A stretch of DNA of 64,000 bases from Candidatus Poribacteria bacterium. GTDB taxonomy: Bacteria > Poribacteria > WGA-4E > PCPOR2b. A program made the position numbers and the translations under genes. This document shows, in pieces, positions 3,326-10,129 of this stretch. The stretch covers positions 4,576,001 through 4,640,000 of the forward strand of contig OZ244587.1 of assembly GCA_965218095.1 (NCBI GenBank), given 5' to 3'. The notes beneath the pieces are model-generated. The model worked only from the letters and a program-made list of their open reading frames with translations, searched no databases and had not been told where the DNA came from. Positions within the stretch are counted from its first letter, which is position 1. Every line of letters starts with the position of its first letter.

Positions 3326-4257
3326 TCATAAGTGGCGATTAAATTGAAAATCCATGGGTTTTCCGTTAAAGTAGAGGTAATCCAAACCATAATACCTCAA
3401 AGGAGAAACCAAAGGAGAAACCCATGGACATCCAAATTGCAACCATTTTCTATCTCTGTGACAAGCTCTTAGAAGCACTCAACTCAAAACCACACCCACA
3501 AACGCAGATGTCTGATGCCGAAGTGATGACCACCGGCATCGTCGCTGCGTTGTTCTTCGGGGCAAACTTGCAAACCACTTGTGACTTTCTAAAGACTCAT
3601 GGCTATATACCCAAGATGCTTTCAAAAAGTCGATTAAACCGATGTTCACCACATTGTTCAAAATCTTGGGACGAAGCTATGTGCAACTTAATCAACAGAA
3701 AATCTATGCACTGGATACCATACCAATTGCTGTTTGTTCCGCATTCGTCGGTCAAAAATCTATACCGATAAGGCATATCGAGGCTATCAAGCGTCCAAAC
3801 GTCGGTATTTCTATGGCTTGAAAGTTCATCTGCTAGTGACTGCGAGTCGACACCCTGTTGAATTTTTTGTGACCCCAGCCAGTACAGGGGACGTTGAAGG
3901 GTTACAGTGGTTTGACTTCGACTTGCCACCGGGCTATGGTGACAAAGCATACAATAATTATGAGATAGAAGATATTGTTACATCAGTCGGAGTCGAATTA
4001 AAGCCAGTACGCAAGAAGAATTCCAAGCGGCTGTATCCACCATGGGAGACCTACTTGGCTAATTACCATCGTAAGTCTGTTGAGACGGCTGGCAGTTTGA
4101 TTAACAAACTGCTTTCACGTTCAATCCATGCAGTAACGCGACACGGATTTGAATTGAAAGTGGTCTTGTTTGTATTGGCTAGCAGTATCAATCAGCTCTG
4201 AGTTCACTCACATATTCAGTTCACTCACATATTCGATGAATAGGTCGCAACTTGGGT
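3326..4257 (+). mobile_element. IS982-family element with frameshifted transposase (3424..4201)
   Basis: MSDAEVMT, RYFYGLKVHL, YGDKAY, RKSVETAGS motifs; right end GCAACTTGGGT; left end similar (AAGTGGCGA), boundary approximate. Confidence 0.85.
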
Positions 4258-4996: not shown

Positions 4997-5947
4997 ATGT
5001 CCTTTGCAGTGACTAACACAACGGGATACTTGACAGAGGAAGCCATCGCATATCTCGAAATGAACGGATGCCGGATAACCAACTGCCAGTTCGATCAGTT
5101 GACCGAAGAAGCATTTTGCGAGGAAATCCGTGGCATAGACGCGGTCATCGCCAGCGGTGAGCAGTATACTGAAAAAGTCTTTCAGGCAGCAGATAAATTG
5201 AAGATCGTGGCGCGAACAGGGGCGGGTTATGAGCGCGTGGACATCGAAGCGGCAGCAAAACATGGCATCTGGGTCACAACGACCCCGGGTGCGACAAGCC
5301 ATGCCGTGTCAGATTTCACCCTTGGCCTGATGCTGAGTCTGTTAAGAAATATCCCGGCGATGGCACAGGAAATGAAGGATGGTCAGTGGAACCAGTTCGC
5401 TGGGAAGGAACTGGCGAGTTTGACCGTAGGAATCGTTGGGGCCGGTTCCATCGGGCGGCAGGTCATCAAAAGGGCAACCGCTTTTGGCGCCAAAGTCCTG
5501 GCCTACGACATTCAACCGGACGACGAATTTGCCGATCAGTGGAATGTCCAATACCTTCCGCTGGATGAACTGATGGCTCAATCTGACATTGTTAGCCTCC
5601 ACGTTTCATTCAATGAGGAAACCCGGGGACTGATAGACCAGCGACGATTGAAGTTGATGAGGAAGGGAGCCTATCTGATAAACACCAGCAGACCCGCCGT
5701 TGTGGACAAGGAAGCCCTTATAAGAGTGCTGAAAGCGAAAGAGATTGCAGGGGCGGCAATAGATGTTCACGCGCCTGATCCTTGTCCGCCGGATGATCCG
5801 CTCGTTCAACTCGATAATGTCATTGCCACACCATGGACGGCATATAAAACGGAGGAGACGATAGCGCGGATGTGCATTATGGCAGCCACTGATGTGGTAA
5901 CGGTTTTGCATGGCGGCGCGCCACAGTTTCCGGTGAATAAGCTGTAG
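4997..5947 (+). CDS. D-isomer-specific 2-hydroxyacid dehydrogenase (phosphoglycerate dehydrogenase-like)
   Basis: VARTGAGYERVD, GIVGAGSIG Rossmann motif, LINTSR, AAIDV; RBS AAGGAGG. Confidence 0.9.
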   Translation: MSFAVTNTTGYLTEEAIAYLEMNGCRITNCQFDQLTEEAFCEEIRGIDAVIASGEQYTEKVFQAADKLKIVARTGAGYERVDIEAAAKHGIWVTTTPGATSHAVSDFTLGLMLSLLRNIPAMAQEMKDGQWNQFAGKELASLTVGIVGAGSIGRQVIKRATAFGAKVLAYDIQPDDEFADQWNVQYLPLDELMAQSDIVSLHVSFNEETRGLIDQRRLKLMRKGAYLINTSRPAVVDKEALIRVLKAKEIAGAAIDVHAPDPCPPDDPLVQLDNVIATPWTAYKTEETIARMCIMAATDVVTVLHGGAPQFPVNKL

Positions 5948-6000
5948 GATAGCTGAAGACGTAGTGGCCTATTTCTTAAACGCGCTTATAAGGTTTAGGC

Positions 6001-6029
6001 TTGCAAGTTTTGTGTAAATTTGATACAAT
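6001..6029 (+). promoter_or_regulatory. sigma70 promoter of the IS1595 transposase (at left IR)
   Basis: TTGCAA-N17-TACAAT. Confidence 0.6.
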
Positions 6030-6068
6030 ATAGGCATCAAACCCTTATGAATAAAGGAGTTGAGATGA

Positions 6069-6950
6069 ATGAACTTGTTTGATGCTGTAGAACGATTTTC
6101 TGACCAAGAGAGTTGTATTAAACACTTAGAAACTATCCGCTGGGGTGGCAAACCTGAGTGTCCATATTGCGAAAGTAAAAAGGTTGCACCGAAGAATGAA
6201 GCTAGCATAATTGGTCGTTGGAATTGCCATACTTGTAAGTCAAGTTTCAATGTGTTACAGGGAACGATATTTCAAGGAACACAGATTCCACTTCAGAAGT
6301 GGTTTATGGCTATCCTGTTAATGAACGATGCGAAGAAAAGCCTATCAAGTTGTCAAATGGCTCGTCATTTGGACTTAACGCAACCCTCAGCTTGGTTCAT
6401 GATGAAACGAATCAGGTCTGAGATGGGTAGAAAGGGCAAGGTTTTACTGAGAGGAATTATTGAATGCGATGAAACCTACGTGGGCGGTAAGCCCCGACGA
6501 CGAAAAGACAAGGACGGGAACTTGCCTCCACCGAGCAAGCGAGGTAGAGGCACGAAGAAAACGCCCGTTATCGGTGCTGTTGAACGGGCTGGGAATGTTG
6601 TGGCGCGTGTGGCTACGAGTTTGAGTCGTAAGGGCGTTTTGGGGTTCATCAAAGGCGTTATTGAGAAGCCGAAGGATTCAGTTCTAATGACAGATGAGTT
6701 CTCATCGTATGAGGCGGTTGATGGGCTCATGCCTCACCATGTCATCAGACACAAGAACTGGCAGTACGTGGACGGTAATACCCACACAAACACGATTGAA
6801 GGGTTCTGGTCGCTGGTGAAACGTGCGTTTCATGGTACACATCACCACTACAAGCATGTTTCGCTCTACATCGCTGAGGCGTGTTACAAGTACAACAACC
6901 GGAAGAACCGGAACATCTTCAAGAAGTTTATCAGGGAATGCTTTGTGTAG
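6069..6950 (+). CDS. IS1595-family (ISXO2-like) DDE transposase
   Basis: CPYC..CHTC zinc ribbon, ECDETYVGG, MTDE, NTIEGFWS. Confidence 0.93.
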   Translation: MNLFDAVERFSDQESCIKHLETIRWGGKPECPYCESKKVAPKNEASIIGRWNCHTCKSSFNVLQGTIFQGTQIPLQKWFMAILLMNDAKKSLSSCQMARHLDLTQPSAWFMMKRIRSEMGRKGKVLLRGIIECDETYVGGKPRRRKDKDGNLPPPSKRGRGTKKTPVIGAVERAGNVVARVATSLSRKGVLGFIKGVIEKPKDSVLMTDEFSSYEAVDGLMPHHVIRHKNWQYVDGNTHTNTIEGFWSLVKRAFHGTHHHYKHVSLYIAEACYKYNNRKNRNIFKKFIRECFV

Positions 6951-6988
6951 GGTGGGAAAACCTCTGGAGACTCCATAGAAGGATTAGA

Positions 6989-7183
6989 TTACACTATTTC
7001 CAACCTTTTGAAAATGGTTGTAATTAGTGTGTAGTCATTTTTAAGTAACTGAATTGCAACTCTTAAATCTTCTACGGTTGCAGTAGAGGTAAATAACCTC
7101 TCTTCAATTCGGTGGGTTTTATCAGCATGTTTTTGTAGATGTTCTTTAACACGTTGAATATCCACCTTCCTTTGTGATGACAT
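6989..7183 (-). CDS. Small helical hypothetical passenger protein (64 aa)
   Basis: Strong RBS AAAGGAGG upstream of ATG; flanked by 14-bp IR. Confidence 0.6.
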   Translation of the reverse strand: MSSQRKVDIQRVKEHLQKHADKTHRIEERLFTSTATVEDLRVAIQLLKNDYTLITTIFKRLEIV

Positions 7184-7230
7184 AACATCTGCCTCCTTTC
7201 TGAGTCATATTTTCAGAGGTTTTCCCATAA

Positions 7231-7354
7231 GGGAGTGTCCGGTGGGAGCCGGACACTCTAGCAACAAAATATCAGGGAGTGCTTTGTGTAGCACCCCCTG
7301 ATATTGCCTAAGAGTTATTGCTTAGGCGTAGCCGTATAAGGACTGCTATACGGC
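7231..7354. repeat. Array of four consecutive hairpins inside IS1595
   Basis: GAGTGTCCGG/CCGGACACTC; AATATCAGGG.GTGCT/AGCAC.CCCTGATATT; GCCTAAG/CTTAGGC; GCCGTATA/TATACGGC. Confidence 0.85.
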
Positions 7355-7372
7355 GTTTGATTACCCTTACGT

Positions 7373-7552
7373 TTAGCGATTTTGAGTACGATAAACGTAA
7401 AGGTTTTGCGTATTTTTATAAACACGATAATCCCTCCTTTCATTGGAATAAGTCGTGATGCAGAGGGTGTTATCAGCAGTTGTCCGTATATGTGGACTTA
7501 CAAGCGTGCCGTCTTTACGCCTGTAAGACTTGATGTATTTGATGCGTGGCAT
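7373..7552 (-). CDS. Small basic passenger protein (59 aa; not in ORF track)
   Basis: Manual translation MPRIKYIKSYRRKDGTLVSPHIRTTADN...; RBS AAAGGAG; Y-R-x-D-G-T-x-V-x-x-H-x-R motif. Confidence 0.6.
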   Translation of the reverse strand: MPRIKYIKSYRRKDGTLVSPHIRTTADNTLCITTYSNERRDYRVYKNTQNLYVYRTQNR

Positions 7553-7617
7553 GGGGGGTCTCCTTTGCCATGTTGTGGCGGTGGGGGTGCTATAACACCC
7601 CCTCGCCTGTTTTATGT

Positions 7618-8058
7618 CTATCTCATGTGCAATCTTCTAGCAACATTTCGGAGGGTTGTTTCGGTTTGCCCAAATCGTTCCTCCATTTGGGCATAACGCC
7701 CCTCTATACTATCTATTGACTTGATGACTGCTACATGAGTTGCAAGGGTAGTTGTCATGTACCTGTCCATTCTCGTTACTGACTGTTGAAAAGAATCAAG
7801 TTTCTTGTCAATATCTTCAACAGGTACGGTTTTCTTCGCAGTTGCATCTCTAGTTTTCAGATTCTCTGCGATGTTGGTAAGCTCTACCCTTCTTAAATTG
7901 ACGACTTCTTCTTTCAGTTGTTTTGCTTCATCTCTGAAGTCTATGAAGGACTTTCTGATACTATACAAATCGTCACTACTGGGAATGTGTTTCCAAATGA
8001 ACTTTCCAGCAGCAATGATAATGAGTATATCCGCTACTACACTAAGAAAATCACTCAT
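7618..8058 (-). CDS. Passenger protein with N-terminal TM helix and coiled coil
   Basis: FLSVVADILIIIAAGKFIW followed by heptad-rich helix; RBS AAAGGA. Confidence 0.65.
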   Translation of the reverse strand: MSDFLSVVADILIIIAAGKFIWKHIPSSDDLYSIRKSFIDFRDEAKQLKEEVVNLRRVELTNIAENLKTRDATAKKTVPVEDIDKKLDSFQQSVTRMDRYMTTTLATHVAVIKSIDSIEGRYAQMEERFGQTETTLRNVARRLHMR

Positions 8059-8142
8059 TGGGGTGTCCTTTACTTTGGCGAGGAAAGGTAAAACAAGCCA
8101 ACGATTTAATAAACTTCAGAATCACAGGCTTGTAACACCCCA

Positions 8143-8171
8143 ATAATATCACATATTCAAAGAATCTGCAA
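8143..8171 (-). promoter_or_regulatory. Inward-facing sigma70 promoter at IS1595 right IR, driving the passenger genes
   Basis: TTGCAG-N17-TATTAT on the minus strand. Confidence 0.55.
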
Positions 8172-8295
8172 GCCAATTATTTATAAATGCGTTTCTTAAA
8201 TTCGTGTCGGGTTTGGAGCACCCCAGACATCAATCGAATTTAAGAAGTGAATCAGTAGACGGTAGCTCATTCACACACAGATAGGAGGACGTTCA

Positions 8296-8620
8296 ATGTC
8301 AACCCAAGCCCCCGGCCATTGGAAACCCGGCGATCCAATCGGCTACATCCGTCCCGAAATCCCTGCGTTCGAGCTGCTGCCCTACCAGGGTGAGCGTTAT
8401 AAGACTATGGCGCCAGACACGCTGGAACTGCAAGACCGGGCAAGGCTGGCTATCTACACCATGACCGAAATCACCGATCCCCTGGCGGACTACTGGGACG
8501 ACGTCGACCATTGGATTCGCAACATGCTCACCGAGGGATAGTTGTTGGCGACGGACTGGATCTATCGGAGGTCAGATGCTGGAACCGAAACCAATCTCAT
8601 ACCAAAGCACCTAAATAAAA
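8296..8620 (+). pseudogene. Internally deleted hypothetical (possibly glycosidase-like) gene
   Basis: Good RBS/ATG; abrupt junction ...DPLADY|WDDVDHWIRN; in-frame TAG 8539. Confidence 0.45.
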
Positions 8621-8788
8621 CCAGGAAAGAGAAAATGTCAGTTTTCCGCCAATTTTTCGAGTATGCCTCAACGGAAGGATGGGAGAAAAAGGCTTCCACC
8701 CTTCCAATCTTTCCAATTTTCCATTCTTCATGACATCGCAAAAACGTTATTCATGGGGAATACATCACTTTACCAGAGGTAAATTACA

Positions 8789-10129
8789 ATGCATAATCTG
8801 GGTACAAATCAGCCAACAGCTAGGTCGACGTTAGCAAGGGACTTCTACGATAGGATGAGCCAACTGTGGATTATCGACGCCCACGAGCATCTTCCCGCCG
8901 AGGCAGATCGAGTCGCCATAGAGGTTGATGCTGTATCGCTTTTCGAGAACTATCCCCGGTTCAACTTGGCCTGCGCCGGTCTACCTGAAGACCAATTTGC
9001 GGCGATGGTGAACCGAGAATTACCCCTCGATGAGCGGTGGAATATTTTCAAGGAATACCTTCCTTTGATACGTAACACCTCGTTTACGCGGGTCGCCTTG
9101 TTGGGAATGCAAGCGATGTACGGGTTCGAGGATATCACGGAGGATAATTATCAGGAACTCTCCCGTGCGATGCAAGCCGCCAATACGCCTGGCATCTATC
9201 AGCGTGTCTTCCGCGATCAGGCGCAAATTCTGGTTGCGCTGAATCAAGAAAGCTATAATGAACCATGGGAGCTTCCACCGCCGAAGAGTTTTCGTCTTCC
9301 GCAGTGGTGGGAATCCCAATTCAGCATTGCGCTGCGGTCCAATGCACTGAAACGGATTGAGGCGCATCTTGGACGTGCCTTATTATCCCTTGACGCTTAC
9401 ATTGAGGGAATCGGAGAAGTCCTCTCATACTATAAGAGGCAGGGTGTCCTTGCGGTCAAACTCAACAAGGAAGCAATCGAGTTGTGGCCAGAAAAAGACG
9501 ACGTGGTGCCCCTCTTTGACAACTTCGTGCGAAACAAAGAACAGACCTCACCTACACGAGAATCACTATCCCCTTCAGCGTACAAGGCGCTGCGCGATTT
9601 CATTGCCCATGCCATCCTGCGCTTTGCTGGCGAAATGGGATTGGCTGTTTGCTTTCATTGCGGACACAGAGCGGAATGGAGAGATTATCGCATGACGAAC
9701 CCATCACTCATGGTGCCAATCTTCCAGCATTACCGAGATGTGAAGTTCGAACTGTACCACGCCGGTTTGCCCTGGGTTCGAGAAACAGGCTTGATTGCCA
9801 GTGCTTTTCCAAACGTTTGGATTAACATGTGCTGGGCGCATGCCCTGGCATCCACATTAGCTAGGAACGCCCTCAACGAATGGCTCGACATGGTGCCAGC
9901 TAACAAGATCATCGGATTTGGCGGAGACACCCAACTCTGGGTTGAATGGACGCTAGGCGACCTCATCGTGAGCCGGCAGAACATTGCGGCGGTGCTGGCA
10001 GGACGGGTGGAGGAAGGCCTGTTAAAGGAGGAACACGCCTTCGACATTGCCAGGATGATGCTTTACGACAATCCGAAAAATCTCTATCAGCTTGAATGTG
10101 AGCGTCTCAATGACGTCGAGTATGTCTGA
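8789..10129 (+). CDS. Amidohydrolase family protein (uronate isomerase-like fold)
   Basis: IIDAHEH, FHCG, LYHAG, FGGD metal-binding motifs. Confidence 0.85.
   Translation: MHNLGTNQPTARSTLARDFYDRMSQLWIIDAHEHLPAEADRVAIEVDAVSLFENYPRFNLACAGLPEDQFAAMVNRELPLDERWNIFKEYLPLIRNTSFTRVALLGMQAMYGFEDITEDNYQELSRAMQAANTPGIYQRVFRDQAQILVALNQESYNEPWELPPPKSFRLPQWWESQFSIALRSNALKRIEAHLGRALLSLDAYIEGIGEVLSYYKRQGVLAVKLNKEAIELWPEKDDVVPLFDNFVRNKEQTSPTRESLSPSAYKALRDFIAHAILRFAGEMGLAVCFHCGHRAEWRDYRMTNPSLMVPIFQHYRDVKFELYHAGLPWVRETGLIASAFPNVWINMCWAHALASTLARNALNEWLDMVPANKIIGFGGDTQLWVEWTLGDLIVSRQNIAAVLAGRVEEGLLKEEHAFDIARMMLYDNPKNLYQLECERLNDVEYV

Follow-up and report, generated by a model that had tools for sequence, protein, structure and literature searches.

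Genomic islands and prophages integrate at the 3' ends of genes (e.g. tRNA genes), where the incoming element restores the gene end and direct repeats, attL and attR, come to flank the insert; integron cassettes have attC hairpins with a GTTRRRY core, and bidirectional intrinsic terminators are known between convergent genes. Closer to the case considered here are the transporter insertion sequences (tISs) of the IS1595 family, reportedly treated by Siguier, Gagnevin and Chandler in 2009 (Res Microbiol 160:232). How elements of this kind gain and exchange their passenger genes is poorly understood; the kind itself has already been described (PMC3129680). Here we analyse one such insertion sequence (IS), designated element A, in a stretch of 64,000 nucleotides (the window) from Candidatus Poribacteria bacterium (assembly GCA_965218095.1, contig OZ244587.1, positions 4,576,001 to 4,640,000 of the forward strand); all coordinates are window positions unless another contig is named. 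Element A is a complete IS1595-family tIS of 2,211 bp (5981-8191, forward strand), and it encloses the whole feature that is our main subject, namely a cargo insert bounded on one side by the end of the transposase gene and on the other by a second copy of that same end.

Element A shares with the tISs described its DDE transposase, which carries IS1595 domains and a zinc ribbon at the N-terminus, as well as terminal inverted repeats, a target duplication of 8 bp and passenger genes that play no part in transposition. What is different is a hairpin that overlaps the transposase stop codon, a mirror-image partner of this hairpin on a passenger open reading frame (ORF), and the survival of the transposase 3' end in a second copy that flanks the cargo. 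Judged by their titles, none of the papers listed in a literature search addresses a stop-codon hairpin, its passenger partner or a retained 3'-end copy, and to our knowledge none of the three features has been reported for tISs. The pair of hairpins with stop codons in their loops, the fossil transposase end that marks the cargo and the allelic series set out below thus seem to make up an undescribed variant of tIS organisation; it is not a new class of system, and its cargo proteins have no assigned family.

On balance we consider it probable that this second copy goes back to the transposase end of another IS variant and survives as a relic, brought in by illegitimate recombination and kept since the two hairpins, HP1 and HP2, insulate the convergent transposase and passenger genes. 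Judging from sequence records and run labels, the lineage resides in sponge-symbiont genomes, and it offers a series in which one form is empty, three are filled in different ways and one is a relic that lacks a transposase gene. Throughout this series the coding 3' end doubles as a structural element and appears to be kept as a fossil once cargo has been added. What results is a concrete model for cargo turnover in small mobile elements, together with a rule for annotation: a short repeat of the end of a transposase gene, found downstream of it, marks the limit of a cargo segment.

The repeated transposase end of element A

The transposase gene of element A (6069-6950, forward strand) encodes a protein of 293 aa with IS1595 domains, and a repeat search over 5900-7700 found that its end recurs. 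The direct repeat (D2) joins 6929-6950 with 7270-7291 at 21 of 22 identical positions, stop codon included, as the earlier note on this DNA had said. Copy 1 (c1, 6929-6950, forward strand) consists of the last six transposase codons, part of the preceding one and the stop codon TAG. Copy 2 (c2, 7270-7291, forward strand) is non-coding, with an in-frame TAG nine codons upstream of its terminal TAG, and in the reading preferred here is a relic of a transposase 3' end. Between the copies lies the cargo insert (6951-7269, 319 bp). By our own arithmetic, a direct repeat of this quality is expected by chance about 1e-5 times in 1.8 kb, and a perfect 14-bp inverted repeat such as the one inside the cargo about 6e-3 times. 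Both copies of D2 are present in 9/9 full-length copies of element A in the source genome (own-genome searches covered the 6.35-Mb genome of the window, phylum searches 176 genomes).

The second copy also takes part in a hairpin. An inverted repeat of 16 nt (I1, 7268-7283 and 7290-7305, 94% complementary, 6-nt loop) makes c2 the 5' arm and loop of a stem that we call HP1 (7268-7305), which bears out another statement of the earlier note. A consensus terminator scan rates HP1 as terminator-like on the minus strand, where its 16 pairs are followed by the T-rich tail TTGTTGCTAG. Immediately beyond it stands HP2 (7307-7326, CCTAAG-N8-CTTAGG), and then a further hairpin (7331-7354), rated by the same scan as terminator-like on the plus strand, where its tail is T-rich. 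Folding of 6915-7340 (z -8.6 and -10.0 for the two strands) returned HP2, HP1 formed with c2, a hairpin 3 (7231-7259, GAGTGTCCGG-TGGGAG-CCGGACACTC, in the folds of both strands) and a long-range stem of 14 bp around the ORF in the cargo.

Empty and differently filled relatives

Both empty elements and elements with other cassettes at the same site, which the earlier note had proposed looking for, were found. Empty and alternative-cargo alleles exist: a locus designated L021 is empty, and element A, element B and a locus designated L047 are filled in different ways. The cargo insert of A is absent from L021 and is replaced by other DNA in B and L047.

The empty relative L021 is the closest element outside the source genome; its transposase is 79% identical to that of A, and its IS of about 1,675 bp lies in a contig of 2,227 bp that starts at the IS left end. 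Here the transposase gene ends in ...TTTATCAGGAAATGCTTCGTGTAA (GTGTAA), with AGCATCCCCTGATAA following directly, HP2 a few bases on, and no insert. Because AGCATCCCCTGATAA stands directly behind TTTATCAGGAAATGCTTCGTGTAA, the 5' arm of HP1 is formed by the last codons of the gene, its loop contains the stop codon, and the sequence that follows makes up the 3' arm. The loop of HP2, in turn, holds the stop codon of a convergent ORF on the minus strand (41 aa in L021, 57 aa in B). The basic form of the IS therefore has a pair of hairpins placed back to back, with a stop codon in the loop of each, and the two are built from the ends of the two convergent genes respectively. In A, the 3' arm of HP1 and HP2 stand at 7290-7326, 319 bp from the transposase stop codon, and it is c2 that supplies the 5' arm and the loop.

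Public sequencing runs were examined as assembled contigs, which drop rare variants, and the joints reported here are those listed for these contigs. In run X6, an RNA library, a loose end after 6946 starts with ATAAGCACTCCCTGAT, and in run X12 a loose end after 6943 (three contigs) starts with CGTATGAAACACTCCCTGATAAAC; each reads as a stop codon followed by the 3' arm. These ends are probably further empty forms. Run X12 also shows a joint from 6946 to 7249 (side 27).

Among the filled forms, element B (G000:C1:5095600-5098870, loci L010 and L108) measures 3.3 kb and has a frameshifted transposase gene with 78% identity to that of A in DNA. Its transposase stop codon TAA overlaps the ATG of the first of several plus-strand cargo genes, and about 1.7 kb of plus-strand cargo is followed by a second 3'-end copy, the 3' arm of HP1, HP2 and a minus-strand operon. 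This cargo includes an 83-aa gene, present twice, and a gene for a secreted or membrane protein of 293 aa with internal repeats; no Pfam or PADLOC family was found among the proteins tested (for three of the cargo proteins, PADLOC alone). In L047, with 61% transposase identity, an insert of 548 bp lies between copies that match at 20/22 or, taken longer, at 27/29 positions. The L047 element is single-copy in its own genome, and so neither an empty nor a filled sister is available for it.

Element C (G000:C1:2551363-2553870, minus strand, locus L102) lacks a transposase gene and consists of B-like cargo, then a 3'-end relic with HP1 and HP2. It also carries two right-end modules, placed around two further ORFs, of which only the outer is followed by a terminal inverted repeat; this doubling indicates that duplicated boundary modules recur in the family.

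How widespread is the arrangement? The last 22 nt of the transposase gene were sought downstream of the stop codon in 124 of 145 loci, 21 having been set aside for an incomplete 3' end or too short a downstream stretch (under 300 nt), and L047 alone (20/22) exceeded the control distribution. One further candidate, L035 (17/22), was set aside as the solo right end of a second, short IS, and eight loci at 16/22 were rejected as no better than controls (of 496 control 22-mers, seven reached 16 and one 19). A covariance model of HP1 and HP2, built from four sequences, was searched over 76 loci out of about 156, one for each distinct element, near-identical copies from one genome and most metagenome loci at 34-40% identity having been left out; within these 76 it matched L021, which is a training sequence, and found no further instance, one additional match having an E-value of 0.39. 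The exact pattern of loop and 3' arm occurs in one of the 176 phylum genomes, the window's own, and a looser version of the pattern had no match in metagenome contigs. Transposase relatives in those contigs amount to 65 loci, none above 52% identity, so the metagenomes add no new close elements. The repeat with its hairpin is rare outside the group formed by A, B, C, L021 and L047.

Stability and conservation of the hairpins

In all four elements that have it complete, HP1 is more stable than expected, with z-scores from -3.4 to -8.5, and in three of the four the minus strand gives the stronger fold. The energies, for the plus and minus strand respectively, are -23.2 kcal/mol (z -6.7) and -26.2 (z -8.5) in A, -16.5 and -22.4 in L021, -16.2 and -20.2 in B, and -22.5 and -19.6 in C. 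The regions around the first copies do not fold (z near 0). On inspection of the alignment, positions of HP1 that are not Watson-Crick pairs are mostly A.C on the plus strand, which makes them G.U on the minus strand. Compensating changes can be seen by eye in HP1: a G-C pair of A is A-T in L021, and where A reads AATATC...GATATT, C reads TTTATC...GATAAA. HP2 is conserved in B and C and recurs with changed stem letters in L021, three double changes separating A, B and C from L021 by eye; RNAalifold, applied to a MAFFT alignment, counted one pair with both sides changed. With four sequences this covariation is suggestive, not a statistical proof. A scan of 5000-9000 against Rfam gave no match at E up to 1.

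Which purpose could such hairpins serve? HP1, HP2 and, in A, the hairpin at 7331-7354 all sit between the convergent transposase and passenger units, and we infer that HP1 and HP2 act there as terminators, insulators or 3'-end structures. They resemble bidirectional intrinsic terminators in being stable hairpins between convergent units; in A, moreover, HP1 is followed by a U-tract on the minus strand, and the hairpin at 7331-7354 by a T-rich tail on the plus strand. They differ from these in that the stems are made from the last codons of both genes, with the stop codons in the loops, and in that L021, B and C have weak U-tracts or none.

The earlier note had offered another function, an RNA switch. 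In such a switch the 3' arm of HP1 would pair alternately with c1 or c2 and so alter termination or translation, either for the transposase or for the 64-aa ORF in the cargo. The alternative pairing that it pointed out is real as a matter of complementarity: an inverted repeat (I5, 6929-6942 and 7290-7303) is 86% complementary on the plus strand, and on the minus strand, by inspection, c1 could pair fully with the 3' arm if G-U pairs are counted. Yet when 6915-7340 is folded, the minimum free energy and centroid structures of either strand have the 3' arm paired with its neighbour c2 and not with c1, which is 341 nt distant, and no Rfam family matches; moreover, a switch cannot be the conserved function, since empty elements have only one copy. 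An RNA switch is scarcely credible for these reasons.

Origin of the second copy

If the basic form is the one seen in L021, where does c2 come from? The length of the repeat varies from 22 nt in A through about 24 in C and 29 or more in L047 to about 39 in B, and the junction of cargo and relic falls at a different distance in each of these four; the whole hairpin arm is always retained, and the relics fade out upstream of a conserved core. In L047, an inserted run of C pairs with a run of G after the stop codon. The differences between first and second copies have a coding look. The 39 nt of the second copy in B read D I F E K F I R E C F V stop and differ from copy 1 at six positions, four of them synonymous, and one of the two non-synonymous changes falls at a residue that is variable in the family, where K, G or E is seen (A and B have K, L021 has G). 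For A the sole difference is GAA/GAG, and in L047 the differences are AGG/AAG and TAG/TAA. The comparison suggests that second copies differ from first copies in the way that two coding alleles do.

This pattern bears on another account, in which a single event copied the 22-39 nt before the insertion point in place, through staggered breaks and fill-in or through template switching at a stalled hairpin, so that both copies would stem from one transposase allele. Hairpins are known sites of replication stalling, and copies within one element are close to each other (21/22 in A, 27/29 in the core of B, 27/29 in L047). However, four synonymous changes out of six with a replacement at a variable residue, as in B, would be expected of alleles that diverged while coding and not of a free copy, and the cassette of A resembles a piece of the passenger operon of another variant. 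In-place duplication is, in our view, unlikely.

The resemblance just mentioned concerns architecture. The cargo of A contains, in this order, a small minus-strand ORF, a Shine-Dalgarno ribosome-binding site and a hairpin with GTGTCCGGTGG, which is the order found on the transposase side of the passenger operon in B and C; the 11-mer GTGTCCGGTGG of hairpin 3 is shared with the hairpin that precedes the small minus-strand ORF of those two elements. Such a likeness fits a join of two variants.

The course of events in the relic reading could have been as follows. In the basic, L021-like form the transposase gene runs straight into HP1: the 5' arm is taken from its last codons, the loop encloses its stop codon and the 3' arm lies directly behind, and HP2 does likewise for the small convergent passenger ORF on the opposite strand. 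Illegitimate or unequal recombination would then have fused the left part of one IS variant, i.e. the transposase gene and DNA downstream of it, to the right part of another, contributing the 3' arm of HP1, HP2, the passenger operon and the right end, with the break in this second variant a few dozen bases 5' of its transposase stop codon. Selection for HP1 would preserve the part of the relic that forms the hairpin, and the part upstream would decay. As a by-product, recombination between the two copies would excise the cargo scarlessly and return the element to its basic form. We infer the recombination join rather than observe it, because no donor variant was found. A nested insertion, with the right end of a second IS just before the relic, was considered as well and rejected, there being by inspection no sequence like a right inverted repeat at that place in A and B.

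Several observations weigh against a relic of this origin. The cargo starts directly after the stop codon in A, B and L047, and for three lineages to do so a site-preferring process is simpler than independent illegitimate joins; in a Latescibacterota genome, too, the homology between related IS variants breaks off no more than about 25 nt from the stop codon, and position 7302, the end of the 3' arm of HP1, is a breakpoint in two runs. A donor, that is the transposase of A with the 64-aa ORF and no second copy, was not found, the DNA of the cassette occurring only in the nine copies of element A. The coding-allele argument stands on 5 to 9 nucleotide differences, which hairpin constraint or gene conversion could also shape, and the hairpin argument is weaker for L047, where the relic lies in the loop of a different stem. 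As to insulation, a clear U-tract follows HP1 in A alone, and the minus-strand tails of L021, B and C are not T-rich by inspection, so that the role of a canonical terminator is not general; the U-tract in A derives from non-coding bases just 5' of c2, and the empty form cannot carry it because the same bases encode transposase there. A contig from the RNA library, furthermore, runs through HP1, although contigs show neither strand nor ends and the library may hold DNA.

Some of these observations would be accounted for if capture were site-specific, in the manner of att sites or integrons, with HP1 as the recombination site, cassettes entering between loop and 3' arm, and the repeat as a duplicated core. 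In A, B and L047 the repeat ends on its right side precisely behind the stop codon, breakage recurs at 7302, empty and differently filled alleles exist, and HP1 forms an imperfect palindrome whose arms measure 13-16 bp and whose loop measures 6-8 bp. What is hard to reconcile with such a mechanism is the inconstant length of the repeat, together with the cargo boundaries (with a slash at the joint, TAG/GGTGGG and AACAAAA/TATCAGG in A, TAA/TGGACT in B, TAG/TAGGCG in L047), which have neither a common core or motif nor GTTRRRY. Nor is there in the 6.35 Mb any repeat-like site outside the IS copies, B and C; the cassette was found neither free nor in another context in the source genome or the 176 phylum genomes; and the element encodes no recombinase, including no IntI-type integrase, with the limit that no search went beyond the element and none was made genome-wide for IntI. 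Among the joints listed for the public-run contigs, none goes back in the manner of a circle, so that the circular junctions raised by the earlier note did not appear, and none skips exactly 341 bp. Adding the coding-like differences between copies, we find site-specific capture distinctly unlikely. The att-like integration of a cassette of about 340 bp that the earlier note envisaged consequently holds in part: the cassette behaves as an insert at the stop codon, but with a repeat of varying length and no common motif, the att mechanism is not borne out.

The comparison with described systems runs along the same lines. As with islands and prophages at gene 3' ends, a direct repeat of the gene end flanks the insert and the gene stays intact; in contrast to these, the element has no integrase, no attP-bearing element is seen, the repeat is variable and c2 looks like another allele. 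Integron cassettes share with this locus the small promoterless cargo beside an imperfect palindrome and variable cargo at one fixed place, but HP1 belongs to the IS backbone, as in L021, and no palindrome travels with each cassette. A stronger version of the idea, in which HP1 is a dedicated capture site, an integron-like slot in the IS where cassettes are exchanged at the junction of loop and 3' arm by the DDE transposase or a host recombinase, strikes us as highly unlikely. Were it true, every capture would leave its mark as a repeat of the 3' end, and cargo would be lost without a scar through recombination between the copies. As it stands, the feature in element A belongs neither with integron cassettes nor with miniature inverted-repeat transposable elements (MITEs) nor with known RNA families.

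The cargo insert of element A

Within the cargo insert, the perfect inverted repeat reported by the earlier note was recovered in the same repeat search (I2, left arm 6953-6966, right arm 7214-7227, 14/14 complementary), with an ORF of 64 aa between its arms (6989-7183, minus strand), preceded by AAAGGAGG. The ORF has no family in Pfam, NCBIfam or PADLOC, and in a collection of 5.8 billion proteins it found, besides itself, one relative at 89% identity. Among the 176 phylum genomes the DNA of the insert is present in the source genome alone, and there only in the nine IS copies; elsewhere in these genomes there are only short matches at chance level, with E-values of 7e-4 or worse.

Could the unit of 275 bp bounded by the 14-bp arms (6953-7227) be a small mobile element in its own right, a MITE or something like a mobile insertion cassette (MIC), to which the 22-bp repeat is unrelated? 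The perfection of the 14-bp terminal inverted repeat speaks for such a unit. Perfect copies of the 14-mer occur, however, only within the nine IS copies, with four other genome sites at one mismatch, no target duplication adjoins the ends of the unit, and the arrangement of B, C and L047 would be left unexplained. The arms, moreover, pair in the folds of both strands as a long-range stem that closes the transcript of the 64-aa ORF. A MITE-like or MIC-like unit is thus barely plausible, and the 14-bp repeat is best read, from the predicted folds, as a stem that closes this transcript or, on the other strand, the 3' untranslated region of the transposase.

Element A as a transporter IS

Element A is a member of the IS1595 family by its transposase domain, its zinc ribbon, its inverted repeats with 8-bp target duplication and its mobility. 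The transposase matches DDE_Tnp_IS1595 (PF12762, an ISXO2-like domain) at 1.6e-34 and 119.6 bits (cut-off 27), Zn_ribbon_IS1595 (PF12760) in its N-terminal zinc ribbon at 3.6e-08 and 33.7 bits (cut-off 25.4), and NF033547 (IS1595 family transposase) at 1.4e-53 and 181.9 bits (cut-off 75). The terminal inverted repeats (left 5981-6012, forward strand, CGCGCTTATAAGG...GGCTTGCA; right 8160-8191, minus strand) are imperfect, the left end agreeing with the reverse complement of the right at 21/32 positions. A target duplication of 8 bp is usual in the IS1595 family, and perfect 8-bp duplications flank 8/9 copies of element A, the remaining one matching at 7/8 positions; in the window the left copy lies at 5972-5980 (TTTCTTAAA; 8 bp in the other copies) and the right copy at 8192-8200. 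The source genome has nine near-identical copies of element A, seven of them identical and two with a common single-nucleotide polymorphism at 6611, and contigs of public runs X5 and X12 show the unoccupied target site, with 5971/5972 joined to 8192/8193. Because nine near-identical copies lie at different sites and the unoccupied site is seen in these contigs, the element is counted as mobile.

It is also a tIS, since passenger ORFs unrelated to transposition lie within the inverted repeats and move with them. Besides the 64-aa ORF, these are a basic ORF of 59 aa (7373-7552, minus strand), with no family in Pfam, NCBIfam or PADLOC, and one of 146 aa (7618-8058, minus strand), whose N-terminus is hydrophobic by eye and for which the same three collections gave only weak matches to DUF16, SMC and JetC (coiled-coil), all under the cut-off; all three predicted minus-strand ORFs are inside 9/9 copies of the element. 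Upstream of the transposase gene, a promoter-like site (6001-6029, forward strand, TTGCAA-17-TACAAT) is a match to the consensus only. A conserved right-end module (8058-8159), 5' of the minus-strand passenger genes, is 89% identical to that of L021 over 133 nt though the adjoining genes differ, and is present in B and, as described, twice in C. GGCTTG, or its complement CAAGCC, occurs in both terminal inverted repeats and twice, as an inverted pair, in the right-end module (8058-8191, 5981-6012); these motifs may be subterminal binding sites of the transposase.

The passenger region on the right varies in the public runs. A contig of 1,644 nt from the RNA library X6 is nearly identical to A over 6190-7302 and 7472-7892, and 110 other letters replace the 169 bases 7303-7471, a stretch that holds HP2 and in which the 59-aa ORF ends; in run X5, a contig joins 7302 to 8083. 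From this replacement and this joint it follows that the right-hand passenger region of A also varies between populations.

About 1.8 kb upstream of element A, an ORF of 155 aa (3734-4201) has weak matches to DDE_Tnp_1 and DDE_Tnp_1_3 and looks like a fragment of another, IS4/IS5-like IS; a 2-hydroxyacid dehydrogenase gene (4997-5947) lies between the two.

The wider family

The Latescibacterota genome already mentioned (L036-L046, L049, L055, L061 and L065) holds at least eight variants of a related IS. Their transposase genes are mostly 85-91% identical in DNA, L049 and L055 being at about 68-70% to the rest. Homology between the variants stops within about 25 nt of the stop codon, unrelated cargo comes next, and a right end of about 60 bp is common to most of them; no 3'-end repeat was seen in these variants. 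In six other loci (L022, L025, L026, L062, L081 and L083), the transposase stop codon overlaps the start of a downstream gene (ATGA), and the first residues of that gene's product (M N/.. L Y Y G D C) have, by eye, the appearance of what we take to be a DNA methyltransferase N-terminus.

In the source genome itself, partial remnants of transposase genes with 66-82% identity (L011-L020) are scattered at G000:C1:1200447, 1203216, 2241253, 2802585, 4117360, 5434776 and other positions, and point to a long history of this IS family in its host.

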